A DNA stretch of 64,000 nt from Ginglymostoma cirratum (taxonomy: Eukaryota). The notes below the pieces were generated by a model. It was not told where the DNA came from, searched no databases, and worked only from the letters and a program-made list of their open reading frames with translations. Positions 3,335 through 64,000 of the stretch are shown piece after piece (position 1 is the stretch's first letter; each line of letters begins with the position of its first letter). The translations under genes were made by a program, and so were the position numbers. Location: positions 22,565,193 through 22,629,192 of the forward strand of contig JAHRHZ010000145.1 of NCBI GenBank assembly GCA_024137785.1, in the 5' to 3' direction.

Positions 3335-3570
3335 AAGAAAGCAAAAGGATGCCAATGCTGGAAATGTGAAATAGAAACGGGAATTGCTGGAGAAACTCAG
3401 CAGGTCTGGCAGCACTTGTGGAGAGAAAACCAAAGTTAACGTACCAAGCCCAATACGATTCTTCAGAACTTCAGAACTCTTCAGTCAGAACGGACTCTAT
3501 GTTAACTTGGATTTCTCTCCACAGATGCTGCCAAACCTGCTAAGTTTCTCCAGCATCTTCTGTCTTTACT
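3335..3570 (-). mobile_element. PLE-terminus palindromic insertion, family B (older)
   Basis: tgctggagaaactcagcaggtctggcagca...gttaac is mirrored by gttaac...tgctgccaaacctgctaagtttctccagca; the long arm carries a gatgctgg-type tail. Confidence 0.75.
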
Positions 3571-4958
3571 TTTTCTTTTACTTCGTATTACCTTATTTTT
3601 TAAAACTGCCTGCCTCGCCAGTACTGCCTTTCATCTCCCTCACTGCTGTCGACAACTGACTAAAACACATCTCTGACCTCTCTTTGCTTTTCTCCACGCT
3701 ACATGTAAAGTAATTTACGTGCCACTTTGTATGTGCAGGGACACCAGAAACACAAAAATGATGTTTACTTTCATGAACTATATCATGAGTTTAGATTAGT
3801 GCCTTTGTGATAAAATCCAGCTCAATTGTAAACAGGATGCATTGAATAACACAGTCTCTTCGTTATTGCATTTGTTAGGCTTCACTAAGTAGCATTCAGC
3901 AGAATTCCTTTTCCTTGCAAAACTCACGTATCACTGGGGGTATGTTAGAAATGTCCACACAATACACAATATCTCACAATGGTACCTGCATAGGTGCAAG
4001 GTTGAGTTTCAGCATCGACTAGTACATCCACAGTGGATTACGATACCATGGTGCAAGTTAGATTGCGAGCCGTGGGATTCATTTAAGCTACTAATCTGGA
4101 CCTGGCACTTCACATGTAGTGTATCTCGAAACAGAGCAGTAGGATTGGCAGCAATCACTCGACGCCCCTACACATGCAGCTGCAATCAGCGTAAATCTAG
4201 CAAGAGAATTAGTCGACTGGTCTAGTAATGCTGAAACCCAACACCGGATTGAAAATATCATTTGGAAGAAAATTATTTTGTTTCCAGAAAGGACAATTTG
4301 TTGGCATGCTTTCCATGCTGTAATGTTCTGGGTTTCTATGAAGCCACGCACCATCCTAATATGGAGTTATATCGCTGTTCCTTTCCTGACAATGGGTCAA
4401 AATCCTGGAGCTGCTTTCCTAAAAGCACTTCTGGTGTACCTACACCAAATGGACTGCTGTGGTTCAAGAAAGCAACTCAACATCTCCTTTTTCAATGGCA
4501 GTTAGGAATGGGCAACAAAAACTGGCCGAGCCAGAAATACCTCCATGCAGTGAAAAAATAAAACAACACTAAAAGGGTGTGGACCTAAAAGAATACAAAT
4601 ACTTGTGTAAATTTTGTAGTAGTTAAGAGGGAGATCTTATTGACTGGCGCAGCAAAATCCCTGAGTGTCTGCAGTGTAACTGGTTCACATAGATGTAGGA
4701 CAGGATGCATTCTGACCTTTAAATCATTTGTTGTAAACACTGGATCTAAAATCAAAGAATTTGCACCATCTTGACAGCCACCTGCCTTGGAAAGTGTGAG
4801 ATTCACTTCACTGCATCCATTGCCTCTAGCCTAAAATGTTTTCCAGTTGTAAAACACAATTTAATCTTACCTGCAAGATGCGATTTGCAATGTGTCAAGT
4901 TTGTGAATACTTCTGAAATCCATTTTAGTGTATACAGTCCCATCTAATTAATTTAGCA

Positions 4959-5128
4959 TAGCAAGGTGTAGAGCTGGATGAACACAGCAGGCCAAGCAGC
5001 ATCAGAGGAGCAGAGGAGTTCCTCTGATGCTGCTTGGCCTGCTGTGTTCATTCAGCTCTACACCTTGCTATCTCAGATTCTCCAGCATCTGCAATTCCTA
5101 CTATTAATTAATTTAATTAATTTAATTG
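4959..5128 (+). mobile_element. PLE-terminus palindromic insertion, family A
   Basis: 52-bp inverted arms (4958-5009 / 5020-5071, one mismatch) plus a tail matching the 62480-62564 region. 17-bp TSD atctaattaatttagca at 4942-4958 and 5129-5145. Confidence 0.9.
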
Positions 5129-7299
5129 ATCTAATTAATTTAGCAGAATGGATAGGATCTATCAACACAGTCTCTCTATACAGGCAATACCACAGGATCA
5201 GGAAAATCATCGAGTTATTTCTTTACTACGTCATCATATAAAATGCATTGCCTAATAGAAAGCTTCAAATATTCAGGGAAAAGATAATTCTCTTCAAAGA
5301 TTAAAATTGCATGATGAAGAGCTGGCCAGTTCTATAGAGAAAATTATGAGAACAATGCCTTCCATTTTAACCCTATGCCTAACTGATTGACAGGAGATAG
5401 TTGTAATATGGGGGGAATATCAAGATCAGGTAATGTGACCCAAACCACACCCCATTCCCACTCCTTTAAATTTTAACCTGTAGATTCCAGGCTATAGATA
5501 TAGATCTGATATATAAATCACTATTTGAATTTAATTGCTAGTGTGATTTATATATTAATATAATTTATTTTAGAATTTGGATTTTGAACTAGTGGTATGT
5601 AGTTGTTGATCTACATTATGTGTGGTTTAATAATTAGGTTGTCAGACTTTCTGGAGTCATGCTGTTACCCCAGTATGTGTCAGACAGCAGGTGACTAGAG
5701 TCTCCTGGAATGACAATGTGAGTTTAATTGTATAATGACAGTGTTGCAATCAGACAGACTAAACTTTGAAAGGCATTAGTTTGCTTTTGGCTGAGAAGAA
5801 TCAAGAATTGATTTATTTTTGTTCTGAAAAGACATTTGGGGAGAAAGGACTTAGTTTTAAACAATTAGGAAATAGATTACTTCAGTGTAAGACTTTTAGT
5901 ATGAAAATTTCAGAACAGATATATTTGGTTTGAACCTGAAGAGCTTATTTGATGCTAAAGTTGTTTAGCTCAATTGAGTGGATAGTCAAGGAAAAGACTA
6001 TCAAGCTCTGATGACTGGGAATTGAAAGTGACAGTTAAGTTAAACACATTGATGTGATAGGAAATCTCTCTGGTATTTAAATACTGTAATGACTTGGGGT
6101 TGGGATAGATGAGCTTGTATTTTACTGTATGACTTGCAATCTTCCAATTGTTACATGTAAATATCCTGATGTATTCTATTTTGTTAGAATACTATTGTTA
6201 ATATCCCAACAAGGAAATGACCAGCAATTTTGTTCTTTAAAATAAAATCATAAACCAGGATTTAAACAGCTCCAGGAGACGCAGGAGCCAGGTAAACTAA
6301 TGGGTAGCTGGGACAAACAAAATTTGTGATAAGATTGTGTCATCGGAGCCTTTTACTGATAGCTGGAGAAGATATTGAGACTCTGTTTGTCTCAAGGAAG
6401 CAGTTGACAATGAAAGGCCGAGTTAGGAGTGGTTTTACATTGCCATTGGCATTTCATGGACAGGAGGGTAGCACATTTTGTTTTTTACTCCCCTGCCTAG
6501 CTGCTGAGGGCTTCTGTATATTTCAGCAGCAATGACTTCCCCTGGTGGCCCTACTGAGGCATCGGAACAGCTAGCCCTATGGTTCATTTGGCAGCATCAG
6601 GAACCTACTCAGTGTACCTCATTGCCTGGTGAGTCCACAGCAGCTAGGGAACTCCTTACAATTGTTGCATGGATTCTCATGCTGGCAACTGAAATCTTGG
6701 GATCCCCAAACCAAATGTCAGGACCCTGATTCTCCTCATAAAATTCAGCCCATTCTCTCAGTTAGTGTTGATAGATCCACTATCACTGTCCCCCGCCCCA
6801 CAACCCCCAAGTCTTTACTTTCTTGCCTTTTATGCCTTTATGATTCCATTAAAGCCCTCAGAACATAAATAAACACAAGATTAAATATTTCCCCAAAACA
6901 CAGAAAAAATGGCCACTTTATATCTTATTATTTCATTTGGTATTGTATTCATTCAATTGAGAGCTTCTATGTTGCAAGTCCTTTGCACGCCCAAGTATGC
7001 ATTTGTAGTATGTTAAGTTTGGTGCAAAATAATTTTAGCTGTGTGCGCACTGCTGATAAGCTTGTGCAGTATAAATGCAGTGTTCAATCTTAAATTGACT
7101 CCAAAATTCGGTGGAATAAACCCTGCTGTGGGAGTCTCACTCTATTTCACTCAAAAGTCCAGCCCAAGCCTGATTTTAGAATCAGGCTGCATTTTTTCCT
7201 TTACCTTTTTATTGTGTATCAATTTTTTTGAAGGTAACAAGTTAACAAAGCAGTTAACAAAGCATGTGGGATCATGTGCTTTATTAATAGAGATATTGA

Positions 7300-10688: not shown

Positions 10689-11227
10689 CTCCTCTTTTCA
10701 CTGGCAGCCATTGAGGATCGAGCAGGAGACCAATATGAAGTTCAACCCCTTTGTCACATCTTCCCAGAGGAAGAACCGCAAGAGGTCCCTTAATGCTCCA
10801 CCTCACATTAGCAGGAAAACTATGTCCTCGCCACTCTCCAATGGGCTGAGGCAGAAATATGATGTTCATTCAATGCCCATATGCAAGGATGATACGGCTC
10901 AAGTCATCAGAGGATACTACAAGTGTCAACAGTCTGGTAAAGTTGTCCAAGTATACAGAAATAAGTATGTAATCTAGATTGAGTGTGCGCAGTGTGAAAA
11001 AGCCAAAGGTACCAGAGTGCATGTTGGTGTTCACCACAGTAAGGTGGTGATTACCAGGCTAAAGCTAGACAACGATTGCTAGAAGATCCTGGGACGCAAG
11101 GCAAAATCTCACCAATTTGGCAAAGATAAGGGTATATATAAGGAAAAATCTGCTGAAAAAGTGCAGGAGGAATTAAAAGTTCCACTTTTGCTATTTTCTA
11201 TAAAGACTCAATCAAATCAGAAAAAAA
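10689..11227 (+). pseudogene. RPL26: RPL26 (60S ribosomal protein uL24) processed pseudogene; CDS remnant 10735-11172
   Basis: [53 protein letters not shown]...[76 protein letters not shown] is colinear with the 145-aa RPL26 with no intron or frameshift. Premature TAG codons at 10975 and 11080. 5' TOP-like tract ctcctcttttc at 10689, short 3' UTR and an A7 remnant at 11221-11227. Confidence 0.96.
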
Positions 11228-11590
11228 GGATGGCAGAGTGGCTTAGTGGTTAGCACTGCTGCCTCACAGCACCAGGAACCTGGGTTCACTTCTACCCTCA
11301 GGCAATTGTCTGTGTGGAGTTTGCATATTCTCCCTGTGTTGCATGGGTTTTCTCTGAGTGCTCCAGTTTACTCCCACAATCCAAAGATGTGTGGGCTAGT
11401 TGGATTGGCTGTGCTAAATTGTCCAGAGTGTCCAGGGATGTGCGGGCTAGTTGGATTGGCTGTGCTAAATTGTCCAGAGAGTCCAGGGATGTGCAGGCTA
11501 GGTGGATTAGCCATGGGAAATGCAGGGTTATGGGGATAGGATCAGTGTGGGCTAAATTATACCCTGCTTCCACACTGCAGGGATTCTATT
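11228..11590 (+). mobile_element. HE1-type tRNA-derived V-SINE with an internal 51-bp repeat
   Basis: tRNA-like head (gtggttagcactgctgcctcacagcaccagg...ggttc), V-domain-like core (gtggagtttgca..ttctccc), 51-bp unit starting at 11386, 11437 and 11488, CR1-like tail ccacactgcagggattctat. Confidence 0.85.
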
Positions 11591-11932
11591 TCATTGTTTT
11601 AGATTTCTCTGGATGTCACTGCTGGGAAGAATTTATTCCCCCTCCTCTACTTTGAGGCAATTAAAGAAATCTGTTAGCCATACGACAAATACAAGATTTC
11701 ATATTTTAATGTATCTTTTAATTTAAGTCAGATAAAATATCCTGGAATTTGTTTTATTTCATTCAGAGCGAAGGGCATCTCTGCAAGACCAGCATTTATT
11801 GTATCAGAGATAATAGGTACTGCAGATGCTGGAGAATCCGAGATAACAAGGTGTGGGGCTGGATGAACACAGCAGGCCAAGCAGCATCATAGGAGCAGGA
11901 AAGCTTGACGTTTCGGGCCTAGACCCTTTTGA

Positions 11933-12332
11933 NNNNNNNNNNNNNNNNNNNNNNNNNNNNNNNNNNNNNNNNNNNNNNNNNNNNNNNNNNNNNNNNNNNN
12001 NNNNNNNNNNNNNNNNNNNNNNNNNNNNNNNNNNNNNNNNNNNNNNNNNNNNNNNNNNNNNNNNNNNNNNNNNNNNNNNNNNNNNNNNNNNNNNNNNNNN
12101 NNNNNNNNNNNNNNNNNNNNNNNNNNNNNNNNNNNNNNNNNNNNNNNNNNNNNNNNNNNNNNNNNNNNNNNNNNNNNNNNNNNNNNNNNNNNNNNNNNNN
12201 NNNNNNNNNNNNNNNNNNNNNNNNNNNNNNNNNNNNNNNNNNNNNNNNNNNNNNNNNNNNNNNNNNNNNNNNNNNNNNNNNNNNNNNNNNNNNNNNNNNN
12301 NNNNNNNNNNNNNNNNNNNNNNNNNNNNNNNN
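11933..12332. other. Assembly gap (400 N)
   Basis: Run of N. Confidence 1.
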
Positions 12333-12335
12333 TTT

Positions 12336-12363
12336 CTGATGAAGGGTCTAGGCCCGAAACGTC
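12336..12363 (+). ncRNA. Minimal hammerhead ribozyme-like motif with intact core
   Basis: CUGAUGA-A-GGGU-cuag-GCCC-GAAAC-GUC: canonical core boxes, stem II, loopless palindromic stem III (ACGU), predicted cleavage after C12363. A partial antisense copy lies at 11906-11932. Confidence 0.7.
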
Positions 12364-14437
12364 AAGCTTTCCTGCTCCTATGATGCTGCTTGGCCTGCTG
12401 TGTTCATCCAGCCCCACACCTTGTTATCCCAGCATTTATTGCCCATCTTTAATTACCCAGAAGGTAGTTAGGAGTCAATGGCATTGCTATGTAGGCCAAA
12501 GAGGGTGAGGGTGGCAGTTTCCCTCCCTAAAGGACATAAGTGAATCAAATGACAATAGAATCATGGTCATCAATCTTAATCAGAGATTTTTATTGAATTC
12601 AAATTCCACCATCTGATTTGGTGGGATTTGAACCTGGGTTCCCAGAGTGTTACCTGGGTCTCTGGATTAACAGTCCAGCAAGAATACCACTAGGCCATTG
12701 CCCTCCTCAACATATATGTTATAGGCTAGCAATCTGGGATGGTAGACTAGCTAAAATCTCCTCAGAGAAAGGCTCGCTTGATTTACTTGTCATGGGGGAA
12801 GGCCTGGGAAAGCCTTGTAGAAAATTAATTGTTGGTCTTCACACCTTGACACAAAAGAGGGACAACTGTGGTTGGTGAACATAGCTGCTTGGGGCCAGAA
12901 TTTCATGGGGATGGAAGGGGTCTTTGACTTTGTTAGAGCTCTGATTCACTATTGAGGAGGGCAGAATGTTGGTGAGACATATTTGCACATCCCCTCTATG
13001 ACGGCATTGTGGATCCATCTAAAGCACATGGACTGCTTCAAGGAGGCAGCTTACCACCACCTTCACCAGGGCAACTAAGGATGGCCAATGAGTGAATTTT
13101 TGAAAAAATGTATGGTTCATGGAAGCGGCTGTGCATGTCAAATTGCAACAAAAAGCCTTCAAATAGATTCAACTTCCATTGGTGCGATATGCAGAACATG
13201 AGTTGTGACATTTAGACATTTGAACAAAAGGTCTATAGTTTCTTCAGTTATTTGGAGCAGTGGTAATTCAAGCCATCTTCTAGGAGCAGACTTGCTATCC
13301 TCAGGTTTGATCCCCTGAAACAATTAGTAGCTTCGATATTCCTTCTCTTAACAGAAAAGGGCAGAACAGAAGGTATCTAGCGCAGATTCTCAGACACTCA
13401 CCACATCCTTCAGCTCTTTTTCAGGCAAACCTTCCTGGGCCCAATCAGAAGTTTGAGCACTCAGTTTTCCTTCAAATGAAGTGAGGTTACCTTAGTACAG
13501 ACACACAGTTTGGAACAAAGGGTATACTCGGGCACCTGTTGGAATGTGATTTAAAGCAAAAGTAAAATGAACCATTAAGTTGCAGGAAAATCCAAGAACT
13601 TTGTGAAAATGCTCTTTATTTGTATGTTGTGCAAAAAGGAGGGGATTTGGTGAGCTGACATTCACAAGACATTTAAAGCAATATCTCCAGTGGATAAGGT
13701 GACTAAAACAAAAGAGGTAAAGGATATATAAATTAAAACGTACTGGTGAATTTACATAAAAACAAACAATAAAACTGCTTTTAGAGTAGAGCTCCACACA
13801 TTAGGAAGCGTATCAAGACAATTCGGAACACATTACACAAATTCACTCAGGTGTTGCTTGGATGTAAGCAAATGCTTTTTTGGACATGAGCTAATTAAGA
13901 AAATGTGAAACATCAAGGCTTTTTAATAGAATAGAAAATATTTAAAGGTGATTTGACAGGGGTGTTTAATTACCATTGAGGTGGGACACAGCACATAAAA
14001 AATGAGCTGCTTCTAGTGATTTGAGGTGAATAAAGATTAAATGGAAACATTTAGAACATAGAACAGGAGATATTTTTTGCACAGAGATTCGTGAGGCCGT
14101 GGAAAGCATTCAGTTGAAGGATAGATCATGTTAATATTTGGAAGAGGTCAAATGGGTGCTGGTAGAATGGGGAAATAGATGAAGATCAAAATAGGAAGTG
14201 CACATTTGTTTAAGGGTTGCTGCTCATGTACAGACCAACACTGGGTCAGAAGAATAACCTTTCTCTGTGTCGTAATTTATTTGTAATTCTAGAATGAACC
14301 TAATAATCTTTGATAAATCATTTACCGGTTTTATGTGTGGCACTCCTTTTAACACATTTCTTTATGAGATTTTATATTCCTAACTTTACCTATTTCCTGG
14401 GTCACGGATACCGACAGCTATTTTAGGCAATAGTGCC

Positions 14438-14439
<2 letters not shown>

Positions 14440-14488: not shown

Positions 14489-14733
14489 AACAGTAGGAAA
14501 AGTCAAAAACGAACCATAACAAACTGAGTTCCCTTCCTTGCTGTACATAACTATCAGACAGCACCAATACTATCTGTGTTTTAGTATCCTTATCTAAGGA
14601 AAGCGTATTAGAAAGCAACTCATACATTGCATTTGAACCACAGCCCCACTTATCGAACTTCAGTTACCTATCTTGAGCCAGGGAAGGGGGAATAAGTCTG
14701 AATATTACCAAAAAGAAAATCCTGTTAAAGCTT

Positions 14734-15747
14734 GAGAGATAGTAGGAACTGCAGATGCTGGAGAATCTGAGATAACAAGGGGCAGAGCTGGATGAACACA
14801 GCAGGCCAAGCAGCATCGGAGGAGCAGGAAAGCTGACGTTTAGGTCCTAGACCCCTCTTCATTTCTGAGTGGGTGAGTGAGTGAGTGAGTGAGTGGGCAA
14901 ACGTCTGGCAGATGGCATACAATGTAAATAAATGTGAAGTCATACATTTTGGTAGGAGTAATAGTAAAAGGGATTATTACTTGAATGGTAAAAAGTTGCA
15001 GCATGCTGCTATGCAGAGGGACCTGGGTGTCCTTGTGCATGAATCACAGAAGGTTGGTCTGCAAGTACAACTAGTAATTAGGAAGGCAAATGGAATTTTA
15101 TCTTTCATTGCGAAAGGGATTGAGTTTAAAAGCAGAGAGGTTATGTTGCAGCTGTACAAGGTGCTGGTGAGGCCACACCTGGAGTACTGTGTGCAGTTTT
15201 GGTCTCCTTACTTGAAAAAGGATATACTGGCACTGGAGGGGGTGCAGAGGAGGTTCACTAGGTTGATTCCAGAGTTGAGGGCGTTGGCTTATGAGGAGAG
15301 ACTGAGTAGATTGGGATTATATTCATTGGAATCCAGAAGATTGAGGGGGGATCTTATAGAAACATATAAAATTATGAAGGGAATAGATAAGATAGAAGTA
15401 GAGAGGATGTTTCCACTGGCAGGTGAAGCTAGGACAAGAGAGCATAGCCTCAAGATTAGAGGGAGCAGATTTAGGACTGAATCGAGAAGGAACTTCTTCA
15501 CCATGAGGGTTTTTAATCTATGGAATTCCTTGCCCAGTGAAGTAGTTGACGCTACTTCAGTAAACGTTTTTAAGGGTAGATTTTTTTTGAACAATAAATG
15601 AATTAAGGGATATGGTGAGAGCGCAGGTAAGTGGATCTGAGTCCACAAAAAGATCAGCCATGATCTTATTGAATGGCAGAGCAGGCTCGAAGGGCTGGAT
15701 GGCCTACTCCTGCTTCTAGTTCTTATGTTCTTATGTACCTTGTTATC
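14734..15747. mobile_element. Composite insertion: antisense PLE family A arm + CR1 3' fragment + 11-bp remnant of the second PLE arm
   Basis: 14-bp TSD tcctgttaaagctt at 14720-14733 and 15748-15761 brackets the whole unit. PLE arm 14734-14868; remnant accttgttatc at 15737-15747. Confidence 0.88.
14869..15736 (+). mobile_element. Young CR1/HER1-type LINE, 5'-truncated (C-terminal part of ORF2 and 3' UTR)
   Basis: Open 238-aa frame SEWANVWQMAYNVNKCEVIHFG...LYKVLVRPHLEYCVQFWSPY...RRLRGDLIETYKIMKG, typical of CR1 ORF2 C-termini; ends in (ttcttatg)2 tail repeats. Confidence 0.95.
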
Positions 15748-16304: not shown

Positions 16305-16504
16305 AGAGATTGTAAGAACTGCCAATGCTGGAGTCAGAGATAATACAGTGTGGAGCTGGAGGAACACAGCAGGCCAGGCAGCATCAGAGAAGCAGGAAAG
16401 CTGACGTTTTGGACCATTTCTGTAGACGGGTCCCGACCCGAAACACCAGCTTTCCTGCTCCTGTGATGCTGCTTGATCTGCTGTGTTCCTCCAGCTCCAC
16501 TCTG
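16305..16504 (-). mobile_element. PLE-terminus palindromic insertion, family A variant
   Basis: Inverted arms around a degenerate hammerhead-like core (ctgtaga..gggtc..acccgaaac). TSD tatcatttcta(c/t)ac at 16291-16304 and 16505-16518. Confidence 0.85.
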
Positions 16505-17589: not shown

Positions 17590-18660
17590 TACACAACCTC
17601 TCTTCATAACACAGTCCCTCTATGCCTCGTTTCAGCCTAGATAATCTCCTCTGGACTGCTTCCAATGCCAGTATACCTTTCCTTAGATAAGAGGTTTAAA
17701 TCTGTTCACAGTATTCCAGCAGTGGTCTGAAACGTCAACTTTCCTGCTCCTCTGATGCTGCTTGGCCTGTTGTGTTCATCCAGCTCTACACCTTCTTATC
17801 TCTCTACTTTTAGGTTCCATTTCCTTTAAATAAAAGTAAACATTCCATTTACCATCCCCAATAACCACTGAACTTGAATGCTAGTTCTCAGTGATTCATG
17901 CACAATGACTCCCAAATCCCTCTGTTCCATAGCTTTCTGCAATCTTTCTCTGTTCAGCTCCTCTATTCTTCCTCTCTAATTGTGTAATGTCAGATTTTCC
18001 CACACTATGTTCCATTTTGCTCACTTACTTAACCTACCTATAGCCCTCTGCAGACTGTTTGTGTCATCCTCACCACTTGCCTTCCCACCTTTTTTTTTGC
18101 GCCATCCCCAAACTTGGCTATCGTGCATTCATTTTCCTTATCTAAGTTATTAACATATATTGTAAACAATTGTGGCCCCAGCACTTATCCCTGAAGCACA
18201 CCAATATTTTCAGGCTGCCATCCTGAAATGAATTCCATTCACCACCCACCCACCCTCCCCCCAACCTTATTGTAACTTTCTGTCTTTTCTTCGTTCACTA
18301 ATTCTCTCTCCATGTCGATATACTACCTCCAAAACTATGGGATTCTATTTTGTTAAGTAGCCTAGTGTACCTTTTAAAACATCTTCTGAAACTCCAAATG
18401 TATTACACCCGCTGCTTCCCCTTTGTTGGTCTTGTTTATTCCTGCCTCAAAGAATTCTGGTAAATTTGTCAGGCATGAATTACCTTTATGAAGGCATGCT
18501 GACTCTGCTTGATCATGTAAAGTATTTCTAAAAAAAATTCTAAAATCTCCAAACTATATCCTTTATAATAGACTCTAACATTTTCCCAATAACAGACAAT
18601 AAAGTAACTGGCATGAAGTTACCTTTCTTTCCTTCCCTTTTTAAATAGAAGTGTTACATT
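17590..18660 (-). mobile_element. CR1 LINE RT fragment, decayed
   Basis: Minus-strand similarity to the CR1 at 14885-15300 (e.g. gtgcatgaatcac, aatggaatgtt, tggcattggaagcagtccagaggag). Confidence 0.8.
17729..17803 (+). mobile_element. Single-arm PLE family A fragment inside a CR1 remnant
   Basis: gaaacgtcaactttcctgctcctctgatgctgcttggcc...ccttcttatctc matches the family A arm; no TSD seen. Confidence 0.85.
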
Positions 18661-25573: not shown

Positions 25574-25625
25574 CTCCTCTGACGCTGCTGGGCCTACTGT
25601 GTTCATCCAGCTCTACACCTTGTTA
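25574..25625 (+). mobile_element. 52-bp PLE family A micro-insertion
   Basis: ctcctctgacgctgctgggcctactgtgttcatccagctctacaccttgtta flanked by a perfect 12-bp TSD tcatctgtgatt (25562-25573, 25626-25637). Confidence 0.88.
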
Positions 25626-28600
25626 TCATCTGTGATTGGAACAGGTTTCACTGCGGACTGAGGCTGCCCCCGAGTTTTTTTTTTGCAAGGTGTCTGCAAG
25701 CCTGTGCAATAACGATTTCAGATAGACCAGGTTATTTTCCACAATGAATATCAATTCGCAACAATGGATTGTCAACAAGTGCGTGCATGTCAGCAGCGAA
25801 TGATGAGTGCCCTGTTTGATTTAAAACAGACCAAAGTTAAGGGTCGGATGACAAGAGTTGTAGGAGCCCCTTCTCGGCCGCTATAAACTGAAAGCAAAAA
25901 ACAACTTGTCGCAAGAGCCGGCCAGGCCCGCTCACCAAACCCAAGAACTGGCCAGTAGCCAGCGCGGGTTTGCAAGGAACGTTTCAGTCATAATTCCGCC
26001 ATATTTTGCTTTCAAACGACTGATCTTATTTGGCACTTTAAGAAAATGGCTTTTCAGATTGTCCTCATTATCGATATCAGGCTAGAACGCTAATCACATC
26101 TCGACAAAGAAAGATTGGGACAGAATTTCGCAGTACTAAAGGAGACCGTTTGATGCATCAAGATACCTCTGCCAGGACTTACTCCTGTAAGTCTTCCTCT
26201 TCCCAGCAATATGTACCCTCCTGACCTTTAAAGAGTGGGTTCCGTCTCCATTCGTTCTGGTTGAATTATTCCGTGCTATAGGCAATCTGTTTTCTCAGGT
26301 CTCCTCGCCTTTTCCTCTAATGCTTTTGTTAATGATTTTAAATCATTCCCCTTTTATTTCTTTCTAATTTACTCTTCGGCACTGTATTCCTTCGACGAAA
26401 CTTCTCCCCGTGGTAGAGAGAAAGCGCGTGTACAATATTAACAAAAAAAGGTGTAGCTCTTTATGTCTGGTCATGTGAAGAATCCACTGAGAAAGGTTTT
26501 GTTTTACTGAAATTGTGGAACTGAATCTCACTCTAATTGAGCTCGTTCAGACTTCTCTCTGTGAGATTATACCATAAAAAGTAGACACCCCCTCCCTCTT
26601 TTTAACTGGGTTTGAATGAAAGGCGATTTAAAGCGAATTCGTAATAAAAGTCTTGCTTCCCAGCAAAAAAAAAGTTAATGGCCGAAACAGACTCACATCG
26701 GGGCAACGTTTTCCTTTCCCCTGCCAAATAAAAGATCATCGCCAGCAATTAATTAGGGATTAATTAAAAATTAATAATAATTCTCATGAATGCAGCAGTG
26801 CCGTTTGGCGCTCGTTTAGATCTGAATGGAGAAAGTAGACTTTGTCTAAAACAATAAAAATCATTAGGGCTTTGATTCGGAACAAAATGAGAAAAACCGA
26901 TGAGGCTATTTTACTCGGGTCGAAACTGACCTGGGAGAAGAATGCCTCACCCTGTATTGAAAACTCCTTGTGAAACTTGTTCGTTTATCCTTGACGCTGA
27001 TTCCATTGATGTGTTTTGGAACCCGATGTTTAGCTCTCTACCCGAGATAACGCTCTTGCTAAGGTATCGGGTTTACAAAATAAAAGATACTTGAGGGTGT
27101 AAATTTGCAGAGTTGGAAGGTACGGCACTAACTGGTTAACACTTTTAAAATAACAGGGCACAGGCTGCGGCAACCAGAGAGATGAGCCCCTGTTGCCATA
27201 TTGTCTGATTCCAGCTTTGGACTTCATGGCAATACCATGGTTTCTCATTTAATAGCAGAAACAAGCTTAGAACAAAACGTGTTGGCATTGGTATTTCAAT
27301 GGTATTTCAAGACTTCCGTCTCAGTTTGGGTAAGGACAAGGCGAATGCCTAGAGATTACTAAAAGCGAACAGAATGTAATCTTTCAGCCTCGAGCCCAGT
27401 CCTGCCTCTCAGATACTTAACCTGTTACAAGTTGCAGCCGAGTGGGCATCTGTACAGCGATAAAAGATTTCAGGCCTACCACCTGTATCGATGGGGCCCG
27501 GTCGTGTGTTACGCTGGGGCAGGTACATCTCGCCTGGGTCGTGGTAAATACAGCGTGCCACTGTGAGGTTGTTAAAATAAAAACAAGTCGGGATTTAATG
27601 AGCGTTGAAAGCACACGGTCATCTTAACCCCGCAGCACAGTCAAAATTACAAAACCCGACTGAGGGTCAGACTTCACTGACCAAGGGTCAGGGGCCGAGC
27701 TGAACTCGCTTACAAATTGTTGCAAAATGCACTAATGTAAGGTATTTCAATCCCCGCTGACCAAGGCAGGAAGTATATTTTTAAAAAACACACACAAATG
27801 CATCGAATCAGTTATCGATTAACCCTTATCAATTCTTTTAGAAAAAGAAGTAAACAATTCATATCCGAACGGCTGAACAATGAACTTTCGTGTTTTCTTG
27901 GAAACTTAACTGTAAAGAAAATACTTGCTGTTTACTTTGCAAACTTTATTTTGATGCCACGTATGATTTCAAATTGGCCGGTGCAGATCACAAGATAGAA
28001 ACAGTGCAAAACTTGCCTCGGGCGTTCGCTTTAGAATCTAAGCTCCGGACTAGAAATTCTCTTTCGATTCTACCGGCAGCAAGAGGTCAGCCTGACCAAC
28101 AAAGCCAGCAGCCAGGAGCAGTTCATGAGGAACAGGCTGGAATGGTCTGCGCCTCCAAGTGTAGGGCACGAGTTTCCATGTGCTGGGTCCAGGCGCTGGA
28201 GAAACCGATTAAACATCAGTTTCCCCAGCGACTGGACCCCGAAAATTCACGATTAAACATTAGTTTCTGTCAGGACTGATCCAGGCACTGAATCAAACCT
28301 CGATTAATCTTACTTTCATATGCTAACTCGTGAATTTTAATAGCCATTTCCAAATTGTAGGAACATGTCATTGAATAACAGTTGACGGGGTTGTGGGGCA
28401 GAACCAGGTGAAGTTGGAGAATTCAGGACCGCCAACAAAGTAATAAAGATGTGAATAAATGCCAGTCCTTTGTAAGTCGCTGGCCCTAATTCTATCGTCC
28501 ACACGCCCACCTTCACTGTAGATCGGGTATATTTGTTTAATCAAAGTCATTTGGTCTAATTTAGACTGCAGGACAATGGGTTAGGAAAATGTAATGCTGT

Positions 28601-39487: not shown

Positions 39488-39524
39488 GTAGGATGCCCCG
39501 TTCGGCGAACTGACAGCGCGGTTC

Positions 39525-50026: not shown

Positions 50027-50191
50027 AGAAACTGCTGCAGAAACTCAGCAGGTCTGGTGGCATCTGTGGAGAGAAATCCGATTTAACTTTTTGAGTCCAG
50101 TGACCTGTCTGAAGGTGTTTCTCCACTGCTGAGTTTCTCCAGCAATCTTTGATTTTTGTTTTAGATCTTCAGCATCTGCAGTTCTTAGTTT
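50027..50191 (+). mobile_element. PLE-terminus palindromic insertion, family B, nested in a CR1
   Basis: Partial inverted arms; 14-bp TSD tatttattttgaac at 50013-50026 and 50192-50205. Confidence 0.82.
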
Positions 50192-53554: not shown

Positions 53555-53890
53555 GTAGAACAAAAGTATGCCATTCAGCCCTTAAATCATCCAATAAGAT
53601 TGAGGCTGATCTGATTGCAATCTCAAATTAATCTCTCCTACCATGATACCCTTTGCGTCCTTGTTTAACAAGAATAGCTCTCCGCTTTAAAAATATTCAA
53701 GAACTCTGTTTCCACCACTTTTCAGGAAGAGAGTTCTAAAGACTCACTACTCTCTGTGGGTGACTATATTGTTGGGTGACCCGATTTTGAGTCATTTTTA
53801 GATGTTTGATGCCTCATTTTTAAACAGTGACTCCCAGCTCTAGATTCTCGCATAGAAATCAGCTTTCTCTTTAATCATTCTGCCAAGCAG
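53555..53890 (-). mobile_element. CR1 3' end fragment
   Basis: gccattcagccctt..aataagat..ggctgatctg.. matches CR1 3' UTR in antisense, as at 47270-47520. Confidence 0.7.
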
Positions 53891-56800: not shown

Positions 56801-57693
56801 GATAAAAATCCTGAGACAGGTTTAAAAAGGTGTCCTGCATTCTAGTTGTTATGGAAACAAGCTTCCTTTCCTTTGTTAGCTATTGGAGCCTTTTTTAACG
56901 CTATGTACATGTTGTGGCAAAATTATGTTTTGTTTTACACTAGTGTTACATCACAGAAAGAGGACTGTGCTGCTGCTGGAGGTGAGATGACAAACACATG
57001 ACTCATCATTATGCAAACACTAAAAGCAGACTTAATTTAGAAACTAGAATATTTAATATTTTAGTAATTGTATGGTGGATAAATACAGCTTCTGTCAGGT
57101 CTCAGTTCAGCACAGTGAATTGTAACTCTTCTCAACGTTAATTTGAGAATGAAAACATGTCTGGATGTGACCAACATTCATACTGGTGGTGGAACACTGT
57201 GTTCTGTAATGAGGGATAAGGCGGGTAGTATTTAGTCCAATGAATGCCCCTGAGAAGCCACAGTCTTAAGTTGATGTGGTGGCTTTGCTGTTTATAGAAC
57301 AAGGTACTGCACAGCAAAAATAGAGGTCAACTTCTCAGGGACTGGCTACAACTGACAGACGGAACAGTTGGGAGGAGTACAAGTGCCCAATCATTCATGA
57401 GAAGACCCTCTCCAAAGAAATTATATAAATGGAATTAACGTACAGATGTAGATTGTGTTGTCGTATATGTCTACAGCAACTCCTTGAAAGAGCTATCCAG
57501 TTACTCCACACCATTGCTCTTTTCTCACAGCCAGCCAACTTATTCTTTTTCTTAACTCCATATCCAATTCCTTTTGGTCAGTTGTTACTGAATTGGCTCT
57601 CACCAACGTTTTAGGCAGTGCCCGCCGAATCATAGTAACACATAGTATTAAAAAAAATGGAGATGCTACACTAATACGAAGGGTAAACAGAAA

Positions 57694-57929
57694 ACCGAAG
57701 GACTGCGGATGCTGGAAAGCAGAAGCAAAATTCAGAAATTGCTGGAAAAGCTCAGCGGGTCTGGCAGCATCTGTGGAGAGAAAGCAGAGTTAATGCTTTA
57801 GGTCCAGTGACCTTTCTTCAGAACTGCAGTTCTGAAGAAGAGGCAGTGGACCAGAACCATTAATTCTGCTTTCTCTCCACAGATGCTGCCAGACCTGCTG
57901 AGCTTTTCCAGCAATTTCTGATTTTGTTT
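57694..57929 (-). mobile_element. PLE-terminus palindromic insertion, family B
   Basis: ~100-bp inverted arms meet at a perfect 26-bp palindrome ttcttcagaactgcagttctgaagaa (57814-57839). Degenerate CUGAAGA..stem..GAAAC-like cores on both strands; flanking aacagaaa repeat (57686-57693, 57930-57937). Confidence 0.85.
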
Positions 57930-58014
57930 AACAGAAAGGGTCCTTTACTGATGTTCCAACATGGACATTTTCTCCATAATCTTACAGGTATAAGTTAAGC
58001 ATGGTTTTAGTTAG

Positions 58015-59262
58015 CATCAGGATATTATTCAAACATATAATATTCTAATAGACTTGACATGATAGATGTTGAGAGGATAATCCCCATTATGGGGAGGATG
58101 TAAAACTAGGTTTCACAGTCTTAAGGATAAGGGCTCACTCCTTTAAGAAGAAGATGAGGATCACTTTCTCCACTCAGAAGGTCATTACTTTGAACTGGCA
58201 AAAGGCAAGGAGCATTCATTCCATACAAGTACCAGGCACTGATTATCACAGAATTGTTATGGTGCAGAAGAAGGCCATTTGGCCCACTATGCCTGCACCG
58301 ACTCTTCAAAAGAACTTCATTACCTAGTGCCAATCTCCTGGTTTTCCTCATACCATTGCACACCATATCTATCCACATAATCATTCAATGCAATCATGAA
58401 TGCCTCAATTGAACATGCCTCCACCACATTTCCGGGCAGTGTCCCCTTACGCTAACTACTCATTGTGTGAAATCGCATTACTCTTGTTTCTTTTGCACTT
58501 CACTTTGAATCTACGTCCTCTCATCTTGTTTATTTCACGAGTGGAAGCAACTTCTCTCTGTCCACTCTACTTTGTCCAACACGCTCATGATTTTGCAAAC
58601 CTATATCTTTTGATCTTCTCTCAGCTTTCTCCTCTCCAAGGAGAAAAATTCCAACTTTTGCAATTTATCCAACAAGAGAGAATCTAACCATCATCCCCTG
58701 ACATTTAATGGCATAACCATCACTGAATCTCCTGCTATGAACATCCTGGGGGTCACCATTGACCAAACTGAACTGAATTAGCCATACAAATGGCTACAGG
58801 AGCAGCTCAGAGGCTAGGAATTCTGCAGCCAGTGACTCACTTTCTGACTCCCCAGAGCTTGTCCACCATCTACAATACATAAGTCAGGAACGTGGTGGAA
58901 TATTCCCCCCTCGCCCAGATGAGTACAGCTCCAATGACACTCAAAGAACTTGACACTATTCAGGACAAAGTGGCTTGATTGATTGGCATCACAGCCACAA
59001 CTATTGACTCATGAACCCACATCCTGTGAGTAGATAAGTTAAATCATTAGTCTTTGGAATTTTCTTCCACGGAGAATATTGGAGTTTGGGTCATTGTACA
59101 TCATCGAGGATGAGTTGGACAGATTTTTGATTGACAAGAGAGATGAGAGATATAGGGGACAAGCTAGAAAGTAGAGTAAAGCCACAATTAGTTTTTTCAT
59201 ATTGAATGGTACCGCAGCCTGCAGGAGGCTGCCTGGCCTACTCCTGTTCCTTATGATCTTAG
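58015..59262. mobile_element. Nest of CR1 3' fragments: + strand ~58015-58200 and ~59040-59262, - strand ~58245-58660
   Basis: The + pieces resemble 15360-15735 (ggcctactcctgttccttatgatctta tail); the - piece starts with a cacagaat..agaagaaggccatttggccc tail. Confidence 0.7.
58665..59010 (+). mobile_element. Fragment of the same LINE family as 18700-19530
   Basis: tccaacaagagagaatctaaccatc and the following ~340 bp align by eye with 18805-19150. Confidence 0.82.
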
Positions 59263-59491
59263 AATGCTTTGATATGGATGCTTCAAGCTTGAGCCAATCC
59301 AATGCTGTCTTCTTTAAAGTGTGACTTTGGGTTGTTCTGCCAGGCAACTAAACCTTCTCATTTTTATTCATGGAGACCATATATTTATGCAGTATTTTCA
59401 TCAATCTAGTCCCAGTAACAATGATGCTCAAACCCAATTGCCTGCATACAAGTGTCTACAAAAATGACGAATACTCCCATACGTATAGCTA

Positions 59492-59604
59492 TTTTCTAAT
59501 CAGCCTGCTCAGAGATGTTTGTACACACCTCTGGAACAGGTGGGATTTGGACATGGGTCTCCTAGCTCAGAGGTAAGGACATGTGATTGTACCATAGCAG
59601 CTCC
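59492..59604 (-). mobile_element. Short tRNA-derived SINE, same family as 51078
   Basis: Reverse complement shares tcccacctg.tccagaggtgtgta..a..tctctga.cagg.tgat with 51146-51192. Confidence 0.65.
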
Positions 59605-60279
59605 TTCTGCACATATAATGCATGTACATATTTTTAAGGGCATTTATGAACTCACATGAAGAACATGAATAGTTACACAGTAAACAATTGATCACTGAGG
59701 TATGCTTACAAAGCAGATGACAGTAGGAATTCTAGAAGCACCTCTCTATTAACCAATAGAGGCACATGAGGAATGAGCCAAATCCCAGACCTCAATCTAT
59801 GATTTGACACCAAGCCAGTCACAGCTTGTGCATATGGTGCCACCCTTTGGCTTTCTAAATTCCACTGGGTCCTAATATTCACTCAATTCTGACTTTCCCA
59901 CCTCCGCTGGGTGATAAAGGGATTCAAACACAAAAGTGAGAGTTTAAAATTTTAGTTGTTGCTGGACTGAGAAGCAGTGTAGATCAAAGAGGGATTGAGT
60001 GATTGGTATGTGTGATGTGGTGCAGGATTGGGACCAGCTGGCAGAGTCTAGGATGAATTGAACTTCGCTGAAGATGGAGGCTGGGAAACAAAATAGGTGA
60101 GTCCTGAGGGTGAAAAAGTCATGGATGAGGATTGCAACAGTAGACAGCAGTGACAGAGGATAGCGAAGAGTTGGAAGCAGTTGATCTTTATAATGGAGAG
60201 GATTGCAATCAGTAATCTGTCAACCATCAGGACGGAAAATGCCCGATTGTATGTCATCTATTTTAAATGGATAGGTAAT

Positions 60280-60492
60280 CAGACACGGGGAATGTTGGAG
60301 AAACTCAGCAGGGCTCATGGCATCTGTGCAAGAAGAAACGCAAGTTAATGTTTTGAGTCTAATTTGACTCTTCTTCAGAAGAGTCAACTCTGTTTCTCTC
60401 TTCACAGATGCATGCTTCACAGAGCCCTGCAGAGTTTCTCCAGCATTTTCTGCGTCTGTTATATTTCCAGCATCTGTACTGCTTTGCTTTTA
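60280..60492 (+). mobile_element. PLE-terminus palindromic insertion, family B
   Basis: Inverted arms (ggagaaactcagcagggctc / gagccctgcagagtttctcc) with a central ttgactcttcttcagaagagtcaa hairpin and a ccagcatctg tail. Confidence 0.78.
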
Positions 60493-60671
60493 TACAACCA
60501 GGTAGTGTGGACCAACAATTTGCCAACAAACATTGTTGCTCACTGTGAACATTCTACTGGTCTATCTGTTCTATAATGTTAAAACGTAAGAAATAGGACA
60601 GTTCATCCAGTATTTCATAATTAGCACTAAATGTTCCCCTTTAACATCATAAGTTAAGGTTTTGTGTCTGA

Positions 60672-60775
60672 AGTTCTGAATGAAAGTCATATCAGACTTG
60701 AAAAGTTAATAGTTTCTCTCTGCAGAGATGGTGCCAGAACCTGCTGAGCTTTGCTAGCGTTCTCTGTATTTGTTT
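60672..60775 (+). mobile_element. Single-arm PLE family B fragment
   Basis: agttctgaatgaaagtcatatcagacttgaaaagttaat...cctgctgagc resembles the family B arm. Confidence 0.65.
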
Positions 60776-61670
60776 CTTAATCTCAAAATTGGCTGGAAAA
60801 CAATAGTCAGATGTTGGGAAAACAATGAGGCAAACTGGAAAATAGTACCATTTCAGGGTAAAAAGAAAATAAATGTGAGTTTATACTCAATATAAGATAC
60901 TTAAGTTAGTGGATGAATAGAGAGACCTAAGTGCTTAAAATGCAAATTCAGATAAAGTAAGCACATCATGGTTAACAGAGTTCAATGTTTTATAACCAGA
61001 TAGAAGGTAAAATTAGTTAAAAAGTTTGATTAGGCCACGGTTGGAATATTGAGTGCAGCTTTGGGCAACTTGTTTTGGGAAGGACATTAAAGGCATGGAG
61101 TGGAATCTTCTGCTTTTTGATCTGCGGTGTGGTGGCAGGGGTAAAATCAGACAGAATATCCATCAGCAGTGTCAACTACAAAACAGTTCAGATAATGTAC
61201 CAATCAGGCACGTAAGTGGTTACCCGTTGGGCTTTCTGCCAGGACCACTCCCTGGGACAGTGATGTCCACTCCCACTTGAAGCTGCTTGATAATCAGAAG
61301 CAGAGCTATTGTGGAGCCTCTGTACTCCATCAGAAGTTGGAGCTGCTGGTGGCACTGTATACTGGAAATCCAGGAACAGTTGGCATAAGAGGTACTTTAT
61401 TCTGGGGGCAGTGGTGAGGGTCGTGGCTCCCAGTTCATGCTGCTGATGTCCTAAATTGAGGCAGATCCAGGATGCAGTTTGCTAACTGGCTGGGAATAGA
61501 GCTAATCACGGCTTTGGTGTGAAATGTTTCTTAAGTATTTGTTAATTGACAACCCACTGGTCTCAATTGGTGGAAGAAGGCTTTGCTGTTCAAAAAGTAA
61601 TTCCTATCATGGTGGCAAGGTGGTAGAAGATCTTCCTGAAGACAACTCATCTGATTATCTTTGATTATCT

Positions 61671-62564
61671 CAGTGACTCCCTTGTCCGCTCCACACTCCC
61701 CTCCAGCCCTACCACACCCGGCACTTTTCCCTGCAAATGCAGCAAGTGCTACACCTGCCCCCACACCTCCTCCCTCACCCCCACCCCAGGCCCTTAGAAG
61801 ACTTTCCACATCAAACAGATGTTCACCTGCACATCTGCTATTGTGGTATACTGCATCCGCTGTACCCGTTGTGGCTTCCTCTACATCGGGGAAACCAAGC
61901 GCAGGCTTGGGGACCACTTTGCGGAACCCCTGCACTCTGTTTGCAACAAACAACTGCACCTCCCAGTCACAAACCATTTCAACTACCCCTCTCACTCCTT
62001 GGACGACATGTCCATCCTGGGCATCCTGCATTGCCACAATGATGCCACCCGAAAGCTGCAGGAACAGCATCTCATATTTCGCTTGGGAACCCTGCAGCCC
62101 AAGGGTATCAATGTGGACTTCACAAGCTTCAAAATGTCCCCTCCCCCGACCGCATCCCAAAACCAGCCCAGCTTGTCCCCGCCTCGCTAACCATTCCTCC
62201 CACCTCAAGCCCCACCCCATCTCCTACCCACTAACCTCATCCCGCCTCCTTGTCCTGTCTGTCCTCCCTGGACCGACCTACCCCCTCCCTAACTCCCCAC
62301 CTACATTCAACTTTACTTGCTCCAACCCCGCCTCTTTAACCTGTCTGTCTCCTCTCCACCTATCTTCTCCTTTATCCATCTTCTATCCGCCTCTCCGTCT
62401 CTCCCTATTTATTTCAGAATCCCCTCCCACCCGCCATTTCTGAAGAAGGGTCTTGACCCGAAACATCAGCTTTCCTGCTCCTCTGATGCTGCTTGGCCTG
62501 CTGTGTTCATCCAGCTCTACACCTTGTTATCTCAGATTCTCCAGCATCGGCAGTTCCTACTATC
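61671..62564 (+). mobile_element. 5'-truncated Penelope-like retroelement (probably Neptune-type): Cys-rich linker, GIY-YIG endonuclease, 3' pLTR with hammerhead-like core and tail
   Basis: One reading frame gives GTFPCKCSKCYTCPH...(TAG at 61795)...FTCTSAIVVYCIRCTRCGFLYIGETKRRLGDHFAE...NHFN...EQHLIFRLGTLQPKGINVDF (VVY/YIG/R/E/N GIY-YIG motifs). It is followed by a C-rich 3' UTR. TSD tctgatt(a/t)tcttt at 61650-61662 and 62565-62577. Confidence 0.92.
62440..62467 (+). ncRNA. Minimal hammerhead ribozyme-like motif in the PLE pLTR (CpG-decayed)
   Basis: CUGAAGA-A-GGGU-cuug-ACCC-GAAAC-AUC; other copies of the family read GAAACGUC. Stem I pairing is weak. Confidence 0.6.
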
Positions 62565-64000
62565 TCTGATTTTCTTTCTATCCTGTCATTGTCCCCGAGC
62601 ATCTCAGTTGGGAAGATTCCATCGATAGGTGGTATTTGACATTGATTCACCAGGATGGGGCCTGGATAGGACACTGTAGTTATGAAGAGAGACAAATGAT
62701 AGGATTCCTAAGCTCGTTCAAGGAGAAGAAATTTAATAGAGGTTTTCACAAGTAATTTGTTGTTTTAGAAATTTAGTAGTGAAAGTTATTTCCCTCAATT
62801 TTGGGTGTCAGTAAAGAGAGGGCTTAAGTGAAGTTTCTCCAAACAAAGTTTGGTACAACATTGAAGACCTTATCACAGGGAACAGTTGAGGCAAAGGTTT
62901 GAAGTTTATTTAAGGGAAGATTGGACACATATTTGAAGCTGAATAAGATACATGGTTAAAGGCAGAGATTGAGTGCTGAACTAGTTTCACATTTCTTTAG
63001 TAAAGAGCTGACGCAGAACCAGTTGACCAAATGGCTTCCAGTTTTACTGTGAATGCAGTCATTTTAGAATAAGTTAATCAATTCCACCTCCCCCCACCCC
63101 CACCAACTCCATGAGTTTGGTTACAAATACCTGTAAATGAGAGGTTTTTTAAGCCTTTAAAGGGTGGAATTCTGAGGGTTAGTTTGGAATTTTCTGGCAA
63201 CATCTTGATAACGTTGCTGAAGATCGAACTGAACTCACCCACTCCCACCTCAGCCAGTAAATAGGTGGACCTAAGAAATGGAGCAGAATCCTGATGGAAC
63301 CGGCTTGCTCATCATTTTCCATACACTGATCCGAAGCTCAACAGGATTTTCCTATTGGCCTCGACTCGTATGTTGGGTTCTATCTCTTTCTCAGTTAAAA
63401 TTATTTAAAGTTGGGGTGCCTCTGGCTGATAATTGCAATTGAAGTCTGAATTCTAGCCAGTCTAAGGGCACACTGTAAGAAGTGAAATGCTTCCTTCTCC
63501 TGTTTGTGAACAAGTGTTTGGCAATCCTTTCATCAATTGAAGGAAGAAAAGGTAAAGCTGCTCCCATAGATACGCATCGTTTCACCAGAATAGCATCATT
63601 ACCATATGGCAAACTCCTAAAGTTCAACATGGTTCACATCTGTGTGAAGTGTGTTTGCTGAAGTACACAAGCTTCGCTAAAGATTCTTTCCTCAGGATAA
63701 GAAACCTTTTAGACATTCATGTTGCAGACTTATCCTGTGACAGAAGTGCTCCTTGTGTCATTATTCCAAACTGTGATGAATAGAGAAAATTAAAAAAACT
63801 GTCTAAGTCCCACAGTGAACATCCAATTCATATGTTGGGCACTCAGAAATCTCATGCCTGGGAATGGTTACTCGTTAATTCATAAGATCCAAAGTTGGAG
63901 AATACCGTACAAGTGATGATCAATAGAATGCTGATTGATTTTGCAGTTTGTAAAATCTCATATAAACCAGTGTATTCAAGCTAAGAACTGAATGGAGTGC

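Follow-up and report, generated by a model that had tools for sequence, protein, structure and literature searches.

Extremely short, mostly hairpin-shaped copies of Penelope-like element termini in a genomic window of the shark Ginglymostoma cirratum

Inversion, a tail, target-site duplications (TSDs) and palindromes belong to the terminal anatomy of Penelope-like elements (PLEs) as set out in the accessible portions of PMC2377424 and PMC8969392, and the inverted pseudo-long terminal repeat (pLTR) and the tail are called undefined features in that of PMC8557442. The PLE protein of the anole nicks the two target strands and extends each of them, favours AT-rich DNA, works without hammerhead cleavage and is predicted to form a dimer (PMC11167929). 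In that system reverse transcription begins, on either target strand, at two internal sites between which the tail lies, and the later steps were left unvalidated (PMC11167929). Very short PLE insertions, with a median of 128 bp, are recorded for Chlamydomonas in the available part of PMC9977147, and that of PMC4209133 records dispersed hammerhead copies without an open reading frame (ORF) for metazoan PLEs and, for S. mansoni, pairs of minimal hammerheads on opposite strands, 100-700 bp apart. For the whale shark, 10.1101/443036 and PMC8455134 report that PLEs have expanded, the accessible text giving no structural detail. Here we describe a stretch of 64,000 nt of Ginglymostoma cirratum DNA (GCA_024137785.1, contig JAHRHZ010000145.1, positions 22,565,193-22,629,192, forward strand; hereafter the window), in which short copies of PLE termini, mostly head-to-head inverted repeats, are dispersed. 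With a probability of roughly 0.85, these copies are extremely 5'-truncated products of two related shark PLE families, made separately at each insertion by an autonomous element elsewhere and dead on arrival.

Self-BLAST and sequence inspection identified eleven short copies and one 0.9-kb copy in the window (12 insertions, 2747 bp in total, 4.3% of the window; Table 1), and a search with arm profiles found no additional copy in the window, the best leftover matches having E values of 0.58 or worse. The ten short copies, the further arm at 60672 and the long copy listed in an earlier note on this DNA were all recovered at their places. Family A, which the note had equated with the 3' end of a GIY-YIG-coding PLE, indeed shows 83-98% identity to that end of the element at 61663-62564 within the pLTR. 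Family B is homologous to family A, with cross-matches down to E 4e-8 in the profile search; the B arms of separate insertions are mostly 60-77% identical, and family B has no coding relative within the window. Most copies are inverted repeats, as the note had said: eight of ten (A1-A4 and B1-B4) are head-to-head, A5 and A6 are single-armed, and the second arm of B5 comprises only about 20 nt. Self-BLAST gives inverted-repeat E values of 8e-40 for A1, 1e-38 for A2, 2e-34 for A4, 2e-21 for B1, 2e-72 for B3 and 3e-7 for B4, while the two-armed nature of B2, whose right arm carries deletions, and of A3, which is interrupted by a long interspersed nuclear element (LINE), was recognized from profile and sequence work.

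Clear TSDs of 12-17 bp enclose seven of the 12 insertions; one more is marginal (B3), and none was found at A5, B1, B4 and B5. Six of the seven belong to short copies (A1, A2, A3, A4, A6 and B2), which agrees with the six short copies that have AT-rich TSDs of 12-17 bp in the earlier note. The PLE origin, the tail and the long TSDs given there all hold. Pooled over the seven, 71 of 97 bases are A or T (0.73), compared with 0.56-0.64 in the flanks. When the same search geometry was applied to random sites, 11 exact matches were reached at 1/1000 of them and 13 with one mismatch at 2/1000; the level of B3 was reached more often, with 8 exact at 19/1000 and 10 with one mismatch at 18/1000. For A3, a 14-mer recurred within 1100 bp at 45/20000 random sites. 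At seven junctions taken together, 13 nt are common to the short end and the TSD, about 3 nt being expected (P ~6e-4 at p = 0.3, counted by eye). In addition, short duplications of target sequence adjoin the TSDs at 5105-5128 (3' end of A1, 24 nt of stuttered copies after the long arm), at 61663-61668 (5' end of the long copy) and at 25537-25562 (left flank of A6), which suggests repeated re-alignment of the primer or repair synthesis.

The arms follow a common plan, in which signed positions are counted along the element from position 0 of the reference hammerhead-like motif (Table 1). The outer ends of the family A arms are bimodal, six of 11 lying at about +87 to +93 (the short end) and five at +123 to +130 (the long end). 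The tail between these sites is 32-37 nt long and is found on one end only in all eight two-armed copies, each of which consists of one long and one short arm (P = 0.004 at p = 0.5, or P = 0.02 given eight long and eight short ends). The inner ends of the short and long arms, respectively, lie at +35 and +39 in A1, at -3 (contig edge) and +6 in A2, at -5 and +1 in A3, and at -6 and +18 in A4. In family B, as read by eye, the long arm extends further 5' in B1 and B2, the short arm does so in B4, and the two are equal in B3. In A1-A4 and B4, five of the eight, the short arm reaches further 5' and the tail is present only on the long arm, so that neither can have been copied from the other. Of the 20 arms, nine have their 5' limit between -1 and -6 relative to the hammerhead core, one of these ends being the contig edge, and no arm extends past this region.

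Where the two arms meet, they overlap by 2 nt in A3 and A4 and by 3-4 nt in B2 and B4, and the centres of A1 and B1 contain templated duplications of 7-8 nt. Seven centres are resolved and represent six different joins, the three resolved family A centres all being different. The one recurring join, in B2 and B4, has the long and short arms swapped and therefore the opposite polarity. Many copies with one centre in common had been proposed in the earlier note as the sign of a non-autonomous family, and the centres in the window do not give this sign. Compared with the other copies, the two arms of one copy share private variants in six of the seven copies tested (1/52 positions in A1, 5/86 in A2, 5/74 in A4, 2/84 in B1, 11/93 in B3 and 7/75 in B4; 0/49 in B2). 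Private variants common to both arms, taken together with the differing centres, suggest that the hairpins were made anew at each insertion. In the self-BLAST of the window, no copy was found to carry the flank or the TSD of another.

For the making of the hairpins we propose twin priming, to which we give an even chance; by analogy with the anole enzyme, it is the simplest single model that would cover all eight two-armed copies. In AT-rich DNA, the GIY-YIG endonuclease would make one nick in each strand, 12-17 bp from the other, and so free two 3' ends. Both would serve as primers for reverse transcription at internal points of the element RNA, the first at the distal site (long, ~+125) and the second at the proximal site (short, ~+90), 33 nt upstream. 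Both cDNAs would terminate early, in many cases where the hammerhead begins on its 5' side. If the 3' ends of the cDNAs were joined via 2-4-nt microhomology or short templated insertions, fill-in would yield TSD, inverted arm, centre, direct arm and TSD in this order, with the tail on one arm only. Priming from one end only would give a single-armed copy such as A6, A5 or the 0.9-kb copy. The two start sites flanking the tail, the cutting and extension of both strands, the AT preference and the predicted dimer are borrowed from work on the anole Poseidon element; the homology, arm ends, TSDs, pairing, centre sequences and shared variants come from the window, and from these we infer that a single event comprised both primings and that each centre joins one cDNA to the other. 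A6, which is single-armed with a TSD and ends at the short site, indicates that this site can be used without a long arm.

Table 1. Positions of PLE copies, their TSDs and other features in the window
Feature	Position	Strand	TSD (left / right)	Description
Long copy	61663..62564	+	61650-61662 / 62565-62577 (13 bp, 1 mismatch)	5'-truncated PLE; single-armed; long end
Cys linker and GIY-YIG remnant	61669-62190	+		In-frame TAG at 61795-61797; then CT-rich tract, then family A terminus
Hammerhead-like motif, reference copy	62437..62470	+		Minimal type I; pattern match; C of CUGAnGA box = 62440 = position 0
Tail	62534..62568	+		~33 nt between short end (~+87 to +93) and long end (~+123 to +130); 6-nt motif at +88 and +121
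A1	4959..5128	.	4942-4958 / 5129-5145 (17 bp exact)	Short arm (-) 4959-5013; centre with 8-nt tandem duplication; long arm (+) 5020-5104
A2	11802..12428	.	11789-11801 / 12429-12441 (13 bp exact)	Long arm (-) 11803-11928; 400-N gap 11933-12332; short arm (+) 12333-12428; hammerhead pattern intact
A3	14734..15747	.	14720-14733 / 15748-15761 (14 bp exact, right copy beyond LINE)	Long arm (-) 14735-14861; short arm pieces 14860-14868 (first 9 nt) and 15737-15749 (last 13 nt)
LINE 3' end inside A3 TSD	14869-15736	+		238-codon open frame; short tandem tail; LINE RT matches
A4	16305..16504	.	16291-16304 / 16505-16518 (14 bp, 1 mismatch; 11 exact)	Long arm (-) 16305-16412; short arm (+) 16414-16504; divergent subfamily
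A5	17729..17802	+	none	Single short-ended arm within old LINE copy
A6	25574..25627	+	25562-25573 / 25626-25637 (12 bp exact)	Single short-ended arm, 54 nt; no hammerhead region
B1	3332..3566	.	none found	Long arm (-); centre with repeated 7-8-nt duplications; short arm (+)
B2	50027..50191	.	50013-50026 / 50192-50205 (14 bp exact)	Short arm (-); long arm (+) with two internal deletions
B3	57694..57927	.	marginal: 57684-57693 / 57928-57937 (8 exact or 10 with one mismatch)	Long arm (-, end +127); short arm (+, end +95); perfect palindrome at junction
B4	60280..60495	.	none found	Short arm (-); long arm (+) with deletion
B5	60653..60778	.	none found	Short-ended arm (+) 60672-60778 after ~20 nt of inverted arm
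SATB-family gene exon, ULD domain	43014-43283	+		E 3e-19; 1 match among 102 frames searched of 115 listed
Upstream SATB-family exon	39310-39489	+		ATG and splice donor; from sequence

Several points weigh against this reading of separately made, twin-primed products. Palindromes may lose their centres asymmetrically after insertion, which would mimic unequal 5' extents. Only eight copies are two-armed, the B arms, which share about 70% identity, were in part read by eye, the centre of A2 is an assembly gap, and most of the short arm of A3 has been replaced. The shared variants could come from one source locus or from later conversion between arms, and the search for empty sites of the eight TSD-bearing insertions gave none in the window, only self matches. 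The microhomologies that would join two cDNAs also permit intramolecular snap-back, which in A3 would close a 4-nt loop. In the available text of PMC3846280 palindromic junctions are read as self-priming on an antisense template, and in that of PMC8557442 the tail is ascribed to endonuclease resolution of an intermediate; snap-back has thus been proposed for both features. Meanwhile, the anole enzyme in vitro shows no difference in start site between strands and no homology at priming (PMC11167929), so that this assay does not account for the strict long/short pairing and the microhomology of the shark copies.

In snap-back, a strand folds at its 3' end and extends on itself; the copy would still be the product of a single PLE insertion, with its second arm made differently. 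We consider this route rather unlikely, and its two versions fit different copies. If a target-primed cDNA started from the long site, and the copied-back strand ended at the short site and joined the other target end, the second arm would be contained in the first. This is true of B1, B2 and B3, where the long arm is equal or further 5', and it fails in A1-A4 and B4, where the short arm has 5' sequence missing from the long arm; the fold-back of the earlier note, if taken simply as one cDNA copying itself, thus suits three of the eight two-armed copies and not the other five. If instead an antisense RNA or a free intermediate folded back and one side were later trimmed by the endonuclease, a 5'-extended short arm would be predicted, which fits A1-A4 and B4 but fails in B1 and B2. 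The palindrome of B3 without a loop, the centres of A3 and B4, which can form small hairpin loops, and the variants common to both arms, of which snap-back gives a direct account, all agree with it; the single arm of A6, ending at the short site within a TSD of 12 bp, does not. The earlier note had also offered a self-propagating non-autonomous hairpin, a class I mimic of miniature inverted-repeat transposable elements (MITEs), in which one or more master hairpins would be transcribed and re-inserted whole by the PLE enzyme. The high density of insertions, the common stop of nine arms just 5' of the hammerhead with none further, the centre join shared by B2 and B4, and the lack of a coding relative of family B in the window are what such an element would lead one to expect, and non-autonomous PLE derivatives exist according to the available parts of PMC8557442 and, for retrozymes, of bioRxiv 10.64898/2026.07.22.740005. 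However, the differing family A centres, the swapped polarity of B2 and B4, the variants private to each copy and the lack of any copy bearing the flank or TSD of another speak against it, and, by analogy only, the anole RNA must extend past the start sites (into the first 172 nt of the ORF), whereas the stubs end there. The hairpin family proposed in the note is accordingly unsupported in the window, and of its two readings the per-insertion products are favoured. It seems improbable that some hairpins, above all those of family B, whose arms end abruptly at the 5' strand of hammerhead helix I, form a self-propagating, PLE-mobilized palindromic retroelement that is readable from either strand, its machinery also switching templates and setting foreign RNA between two inverted stubs as at A3, and improbable too that master hairpins account for the copies in general; were it so, a class I element resembling a MITE would act as a capture vector in shark genomes.

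Two further explanations place the inverted shape outside PLE insertion. The inverted arms might have arisen after insertion, by template switching during repair, by inverted duplication of single arms or, in A2, by mis-assembly. The arms of A2 are 100% identical across the gap and the other gap of the window has duplicated flanks, but A1, A3, A4 and B2 are free of gaps, with one TSD enclosing both arms, and the outer ends lie at the same two element-defined sites in every copy; we hold such an origin to be a little less probable still than a self-propagating hairpin. A DNA-transposon MITE with terminal inverted repeats would likewise be short, ORF-less, inverted-repeat in shape and flanked by TSDs. 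The termini here are unequal, one having a 33-nt extension, the TSDs are 12-17 bp long, single-armed copies have TSDs as well, and the sequence is 83-98% identical to the terminus of a GIY-YIG PLE. DDE superfamilies make fixed short TSDs, and equal, fixed terminal inverted repeats with a fixed short TSD were not found, so that a MITE is hardly credible.

The hammerhead-like cores reported in the earlier note are partly borne out. With a pattern taken from the available text of PMC4209133 (CUGAnGA and GAAA boxes, NUH, helix II closed by G10.1-C11.1 after one extra base, and a short helix I), intact minimal hammerheads were found at only two places in the window, 12336-12363 and 62440-62467, with none expected from 100 shuffles. 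The remaining arms have decayed cores or, as in both arms of A1 and in A6, lack the region. Helix II is recovered in the predicted fold of the reference motif, and nine hammerhead pairs followed across ten arms are paired in 83% of the cells. Three pairs changed on both sides, but the covariation is no higher than in column shuffles, of which 54 of 500 reach the covariation score and 198 of 500 the pair count. The Rfam search with the best hammerhead candidate (68 nt) found no hammerhead and one irrelevant match; that of the whole window at E up to 1 returned eight matches, no hammerhead among them, all of which were to microRNA precursors far below the gathering scores and were rejected as generic hairpin matches. 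RNA folds of single arms are not better than those of shuffled sequences (z = 0.55, -0.71, -0.99 and 0.49). Since each hairpin copy has one core on either strand, the two would not dimerize on one transcript. Hammerhead cleavage as the definer of the ends was rejected, since no arm begins at the cleavage site (about +28), consistent with the dispensability of cleavage in vitro (PMC11167929). Just past the hammerhead, the B arms (e.g. 57860-57883) have a branch-point-like hexamer, a pyrimidine tract and CAG, resembling 3' splice sites, and the short end of both families (e.g. 62520-62536) has a pyrimidine-rich stretch before AG, likewise 3' splice-site-like by sequence. A splice acceptor as the cause of the 5' limit was dropped, as the nearest upstream AG in the reference copy is about 26 nt off.

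The Cys linker and GIY-YIG domain of the long copy have 86% and 83% amino acid identity to proteins of the whale shark and the zebra shark in which reverse transcriptase (RT) lies upstream, and this by itself would point to a carpet shark as the probable host. The Pfam match to GIY-YIG at 61798-62187 is weak (E 0.004, below the curated cut-off); the cysteines are present, and a conserved Arg and His are altered. A CX2-5CxxC linker precedes the endonuclease both in the translation of the window and in a close homologue, P0001, and is a mark of Neptune/Nematis-type PLEs in the available text of PMC8557442; going by this linker alone, the element would be of that type. The PLE-type RT is missing from the truncated copy and present in the close homologues P0001 and P0002, tblastn found no RT-homologous sequence in the window, and the window has no full-length copy. 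The copy codes only for the linker and GIY-YIG, with an in-frame TAG and without RT, and therefore cannot be a working partner; the coding partner element of the earlier note is instead a dead sibling insertion. Since the RT is absent through truncation, its absence counts against an autonomous copy and not against derivation from a PLE. An open frame of 43 codons runs through the pLTR and tail (62440-62568, + strand), in the frame in which the hammerhead box would supply an ATG. A protein search with this 43-aa frame gave nine matches, of which the seven inspected are automatic gene models running through repeat copies, none linked to RT, and a PLE ORF start as in the anole element was not confirmed by it. 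Among gene models from another genome, P0137 shows an inverted arm followed by a direct arm with a further distinct centre, and P0138 does likewise; this is read at the protein level only, where exon joins may intervene.

Three family A copies require separate comment. The arms of A2 are identical over 86 aligned positions, and its true length and centre are hidden by the 400-N assembly gap. A3 is two-armed, not single: its short arm is split by the 3' end of a LINE of about 0.87 kb (+ strand), presumably CR1-like, all inside the 14-bp TSD. The 5' junction of the LINE bears a 4-nt repeat in 7.5 copies. It is simpler to assume that a LINE inserted later and removed about 75 bp of the hairpin than to invoke the alternative, a template jump during PLE insertion; foreign DNA between pLTRs within a TSD has been seen in Adineta vaga, as the accessible part of PMC3846280 has it. 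A5 occupies the place of about 30 nt that are kept in the paralogous LINE at 15140-15169, which suggests that at some insertions target sequence may be lost instead of duplicated. As the relationship between the two LINE copies is distant, the deletion may be independent of the insertion.

As for the surroundings, the copies at 50027-62564 lie downstream of the SATB-family exon (+) and are probably intronic. The upstream exon at 39310-39489 gave nothing in an Atlas search; we take it to resemble the start of SATB2. An intron-less pseudogene of ribosomal protein L26 with stop codons lies at about 10736-11180 (+; Pfam E 3e-14). Copies of a repeat resembling short interspersed nuclear elements, presumably HE1-like, are found at 11232-11520 and 21572-22084 (81% identity over 213 bp), one with a 51-bp internal tandem duplication, and another old repeat has two copies at 18805-19092 and 58668-58952 (72% identity over 293 bp). 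The 100-N gap at 35505-35701 is bordered by an identical 46 bp on both sides and is probably an overlap left unmerged by the assembly.

Our literature search, from which most of the subscription literature, including the PLE papers of 2002-2006, was out of scope, returned no account of ORF-less PLE hairpins in sharks, and the phrase 'twin priming' is absent from the PLE papers listed by one of its queries; the accessible part of PMC5753468 has nothing on palindromic PLEs. Within 250 bp, a minimal copy shows its TSD, its inner junction and the two ends at which priming would have occurred. If the density of this one window were typical, which is an extrapolation, each shark genome would contain many thousands of such junctions, and counting them could separate twin priming from snap-back. 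Meanwhile, the stubs can pass for MITEs or microRNA hairpins, they enter automatic gene models and, in A2, they coincide with an assembly gap.

Among other retroelements, twin priming was reportedly described for LINE-1 by Ostertag and Kazazian in 2001, with both nicked strands priming on the element RNA, a 5' inversion within one TSD and an inner junction that shows microhomology. The second priming site of LINE-1 varies in position and lies upstream, so that the inverted part does not duplicate the direct part, whereas here the site is fixed 33 nt away and the arms duplicate each other. The minimal type I core, the extra base before helix II and the palindromic 2-nt helix III are like those of metazoan PLE hammerheads in the available text of PMC4209133. 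The stubs are unlike the non-LTR retrozymes of bioRxiv 10.64898/2026.07.22.740005, which form head-to-tail tandem arrays in its accessible text, also in one sampled cartilaginous fish; no head-to-tail hammerhead array is among the six tandem repeats found in the window. Asymmetry of the arms and TSDs around hammerhead pairs are not described in the accessible text of either source (PMC4209133; bioRxiv 10.64898/2026.07.22.740005).

The Poseidon element of Anolis carolinensis (PAc, PMC11167929) resembles the shark copies in that two end points bound a tail of 30-40 nt about 90-130 nt past the hammerhead core, targets are AT-rich and there is no sign of a hammerhead-cleaved end in use. It differs in belonging to the Penelope/Poseidon clade without the Cys linker and in priming without homology, and inverted copies and TSDs are not treated in the main text of that paper. 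As far as the description of Neptune and Nematis in the available sources goes, the shark element shares with them two cysteines inside a C-terminal GIY-YIG domain, preceded by a CX2-5CxxC linker, although its targets are mixed AT-rich DNA and not microsatellites. In overall structure the shark copies agree with endonuclease-positive PLEs, such as Pen2a_Av of A. vaga (PMC3846280), the scheme in PMC8557442 and Penelope of D. virilis (PMC2377424), whose available descriptions share the 5' truncation and the head-to-head inverted truncated copy, and likewise a 30-40-nt tail at one end, one TSD round the unit, palindromes at junctions and foreign sequence between pLTRs. In contrast to these elements, the shark arms are reduced to 55-135 nt with no ORF left, and compared with A. 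vaga, as far as its available description allows, the TSDs are longer (12-17 bp against 8-10 bp) and the density is far higher. Inverted truncated pLTRs with a one-sided tail are an already described PLE anatomy; less ordinary are the strict pairing of one long with one short arm, the arms that are not nested in each other and the 5' limit at the hammerhead.

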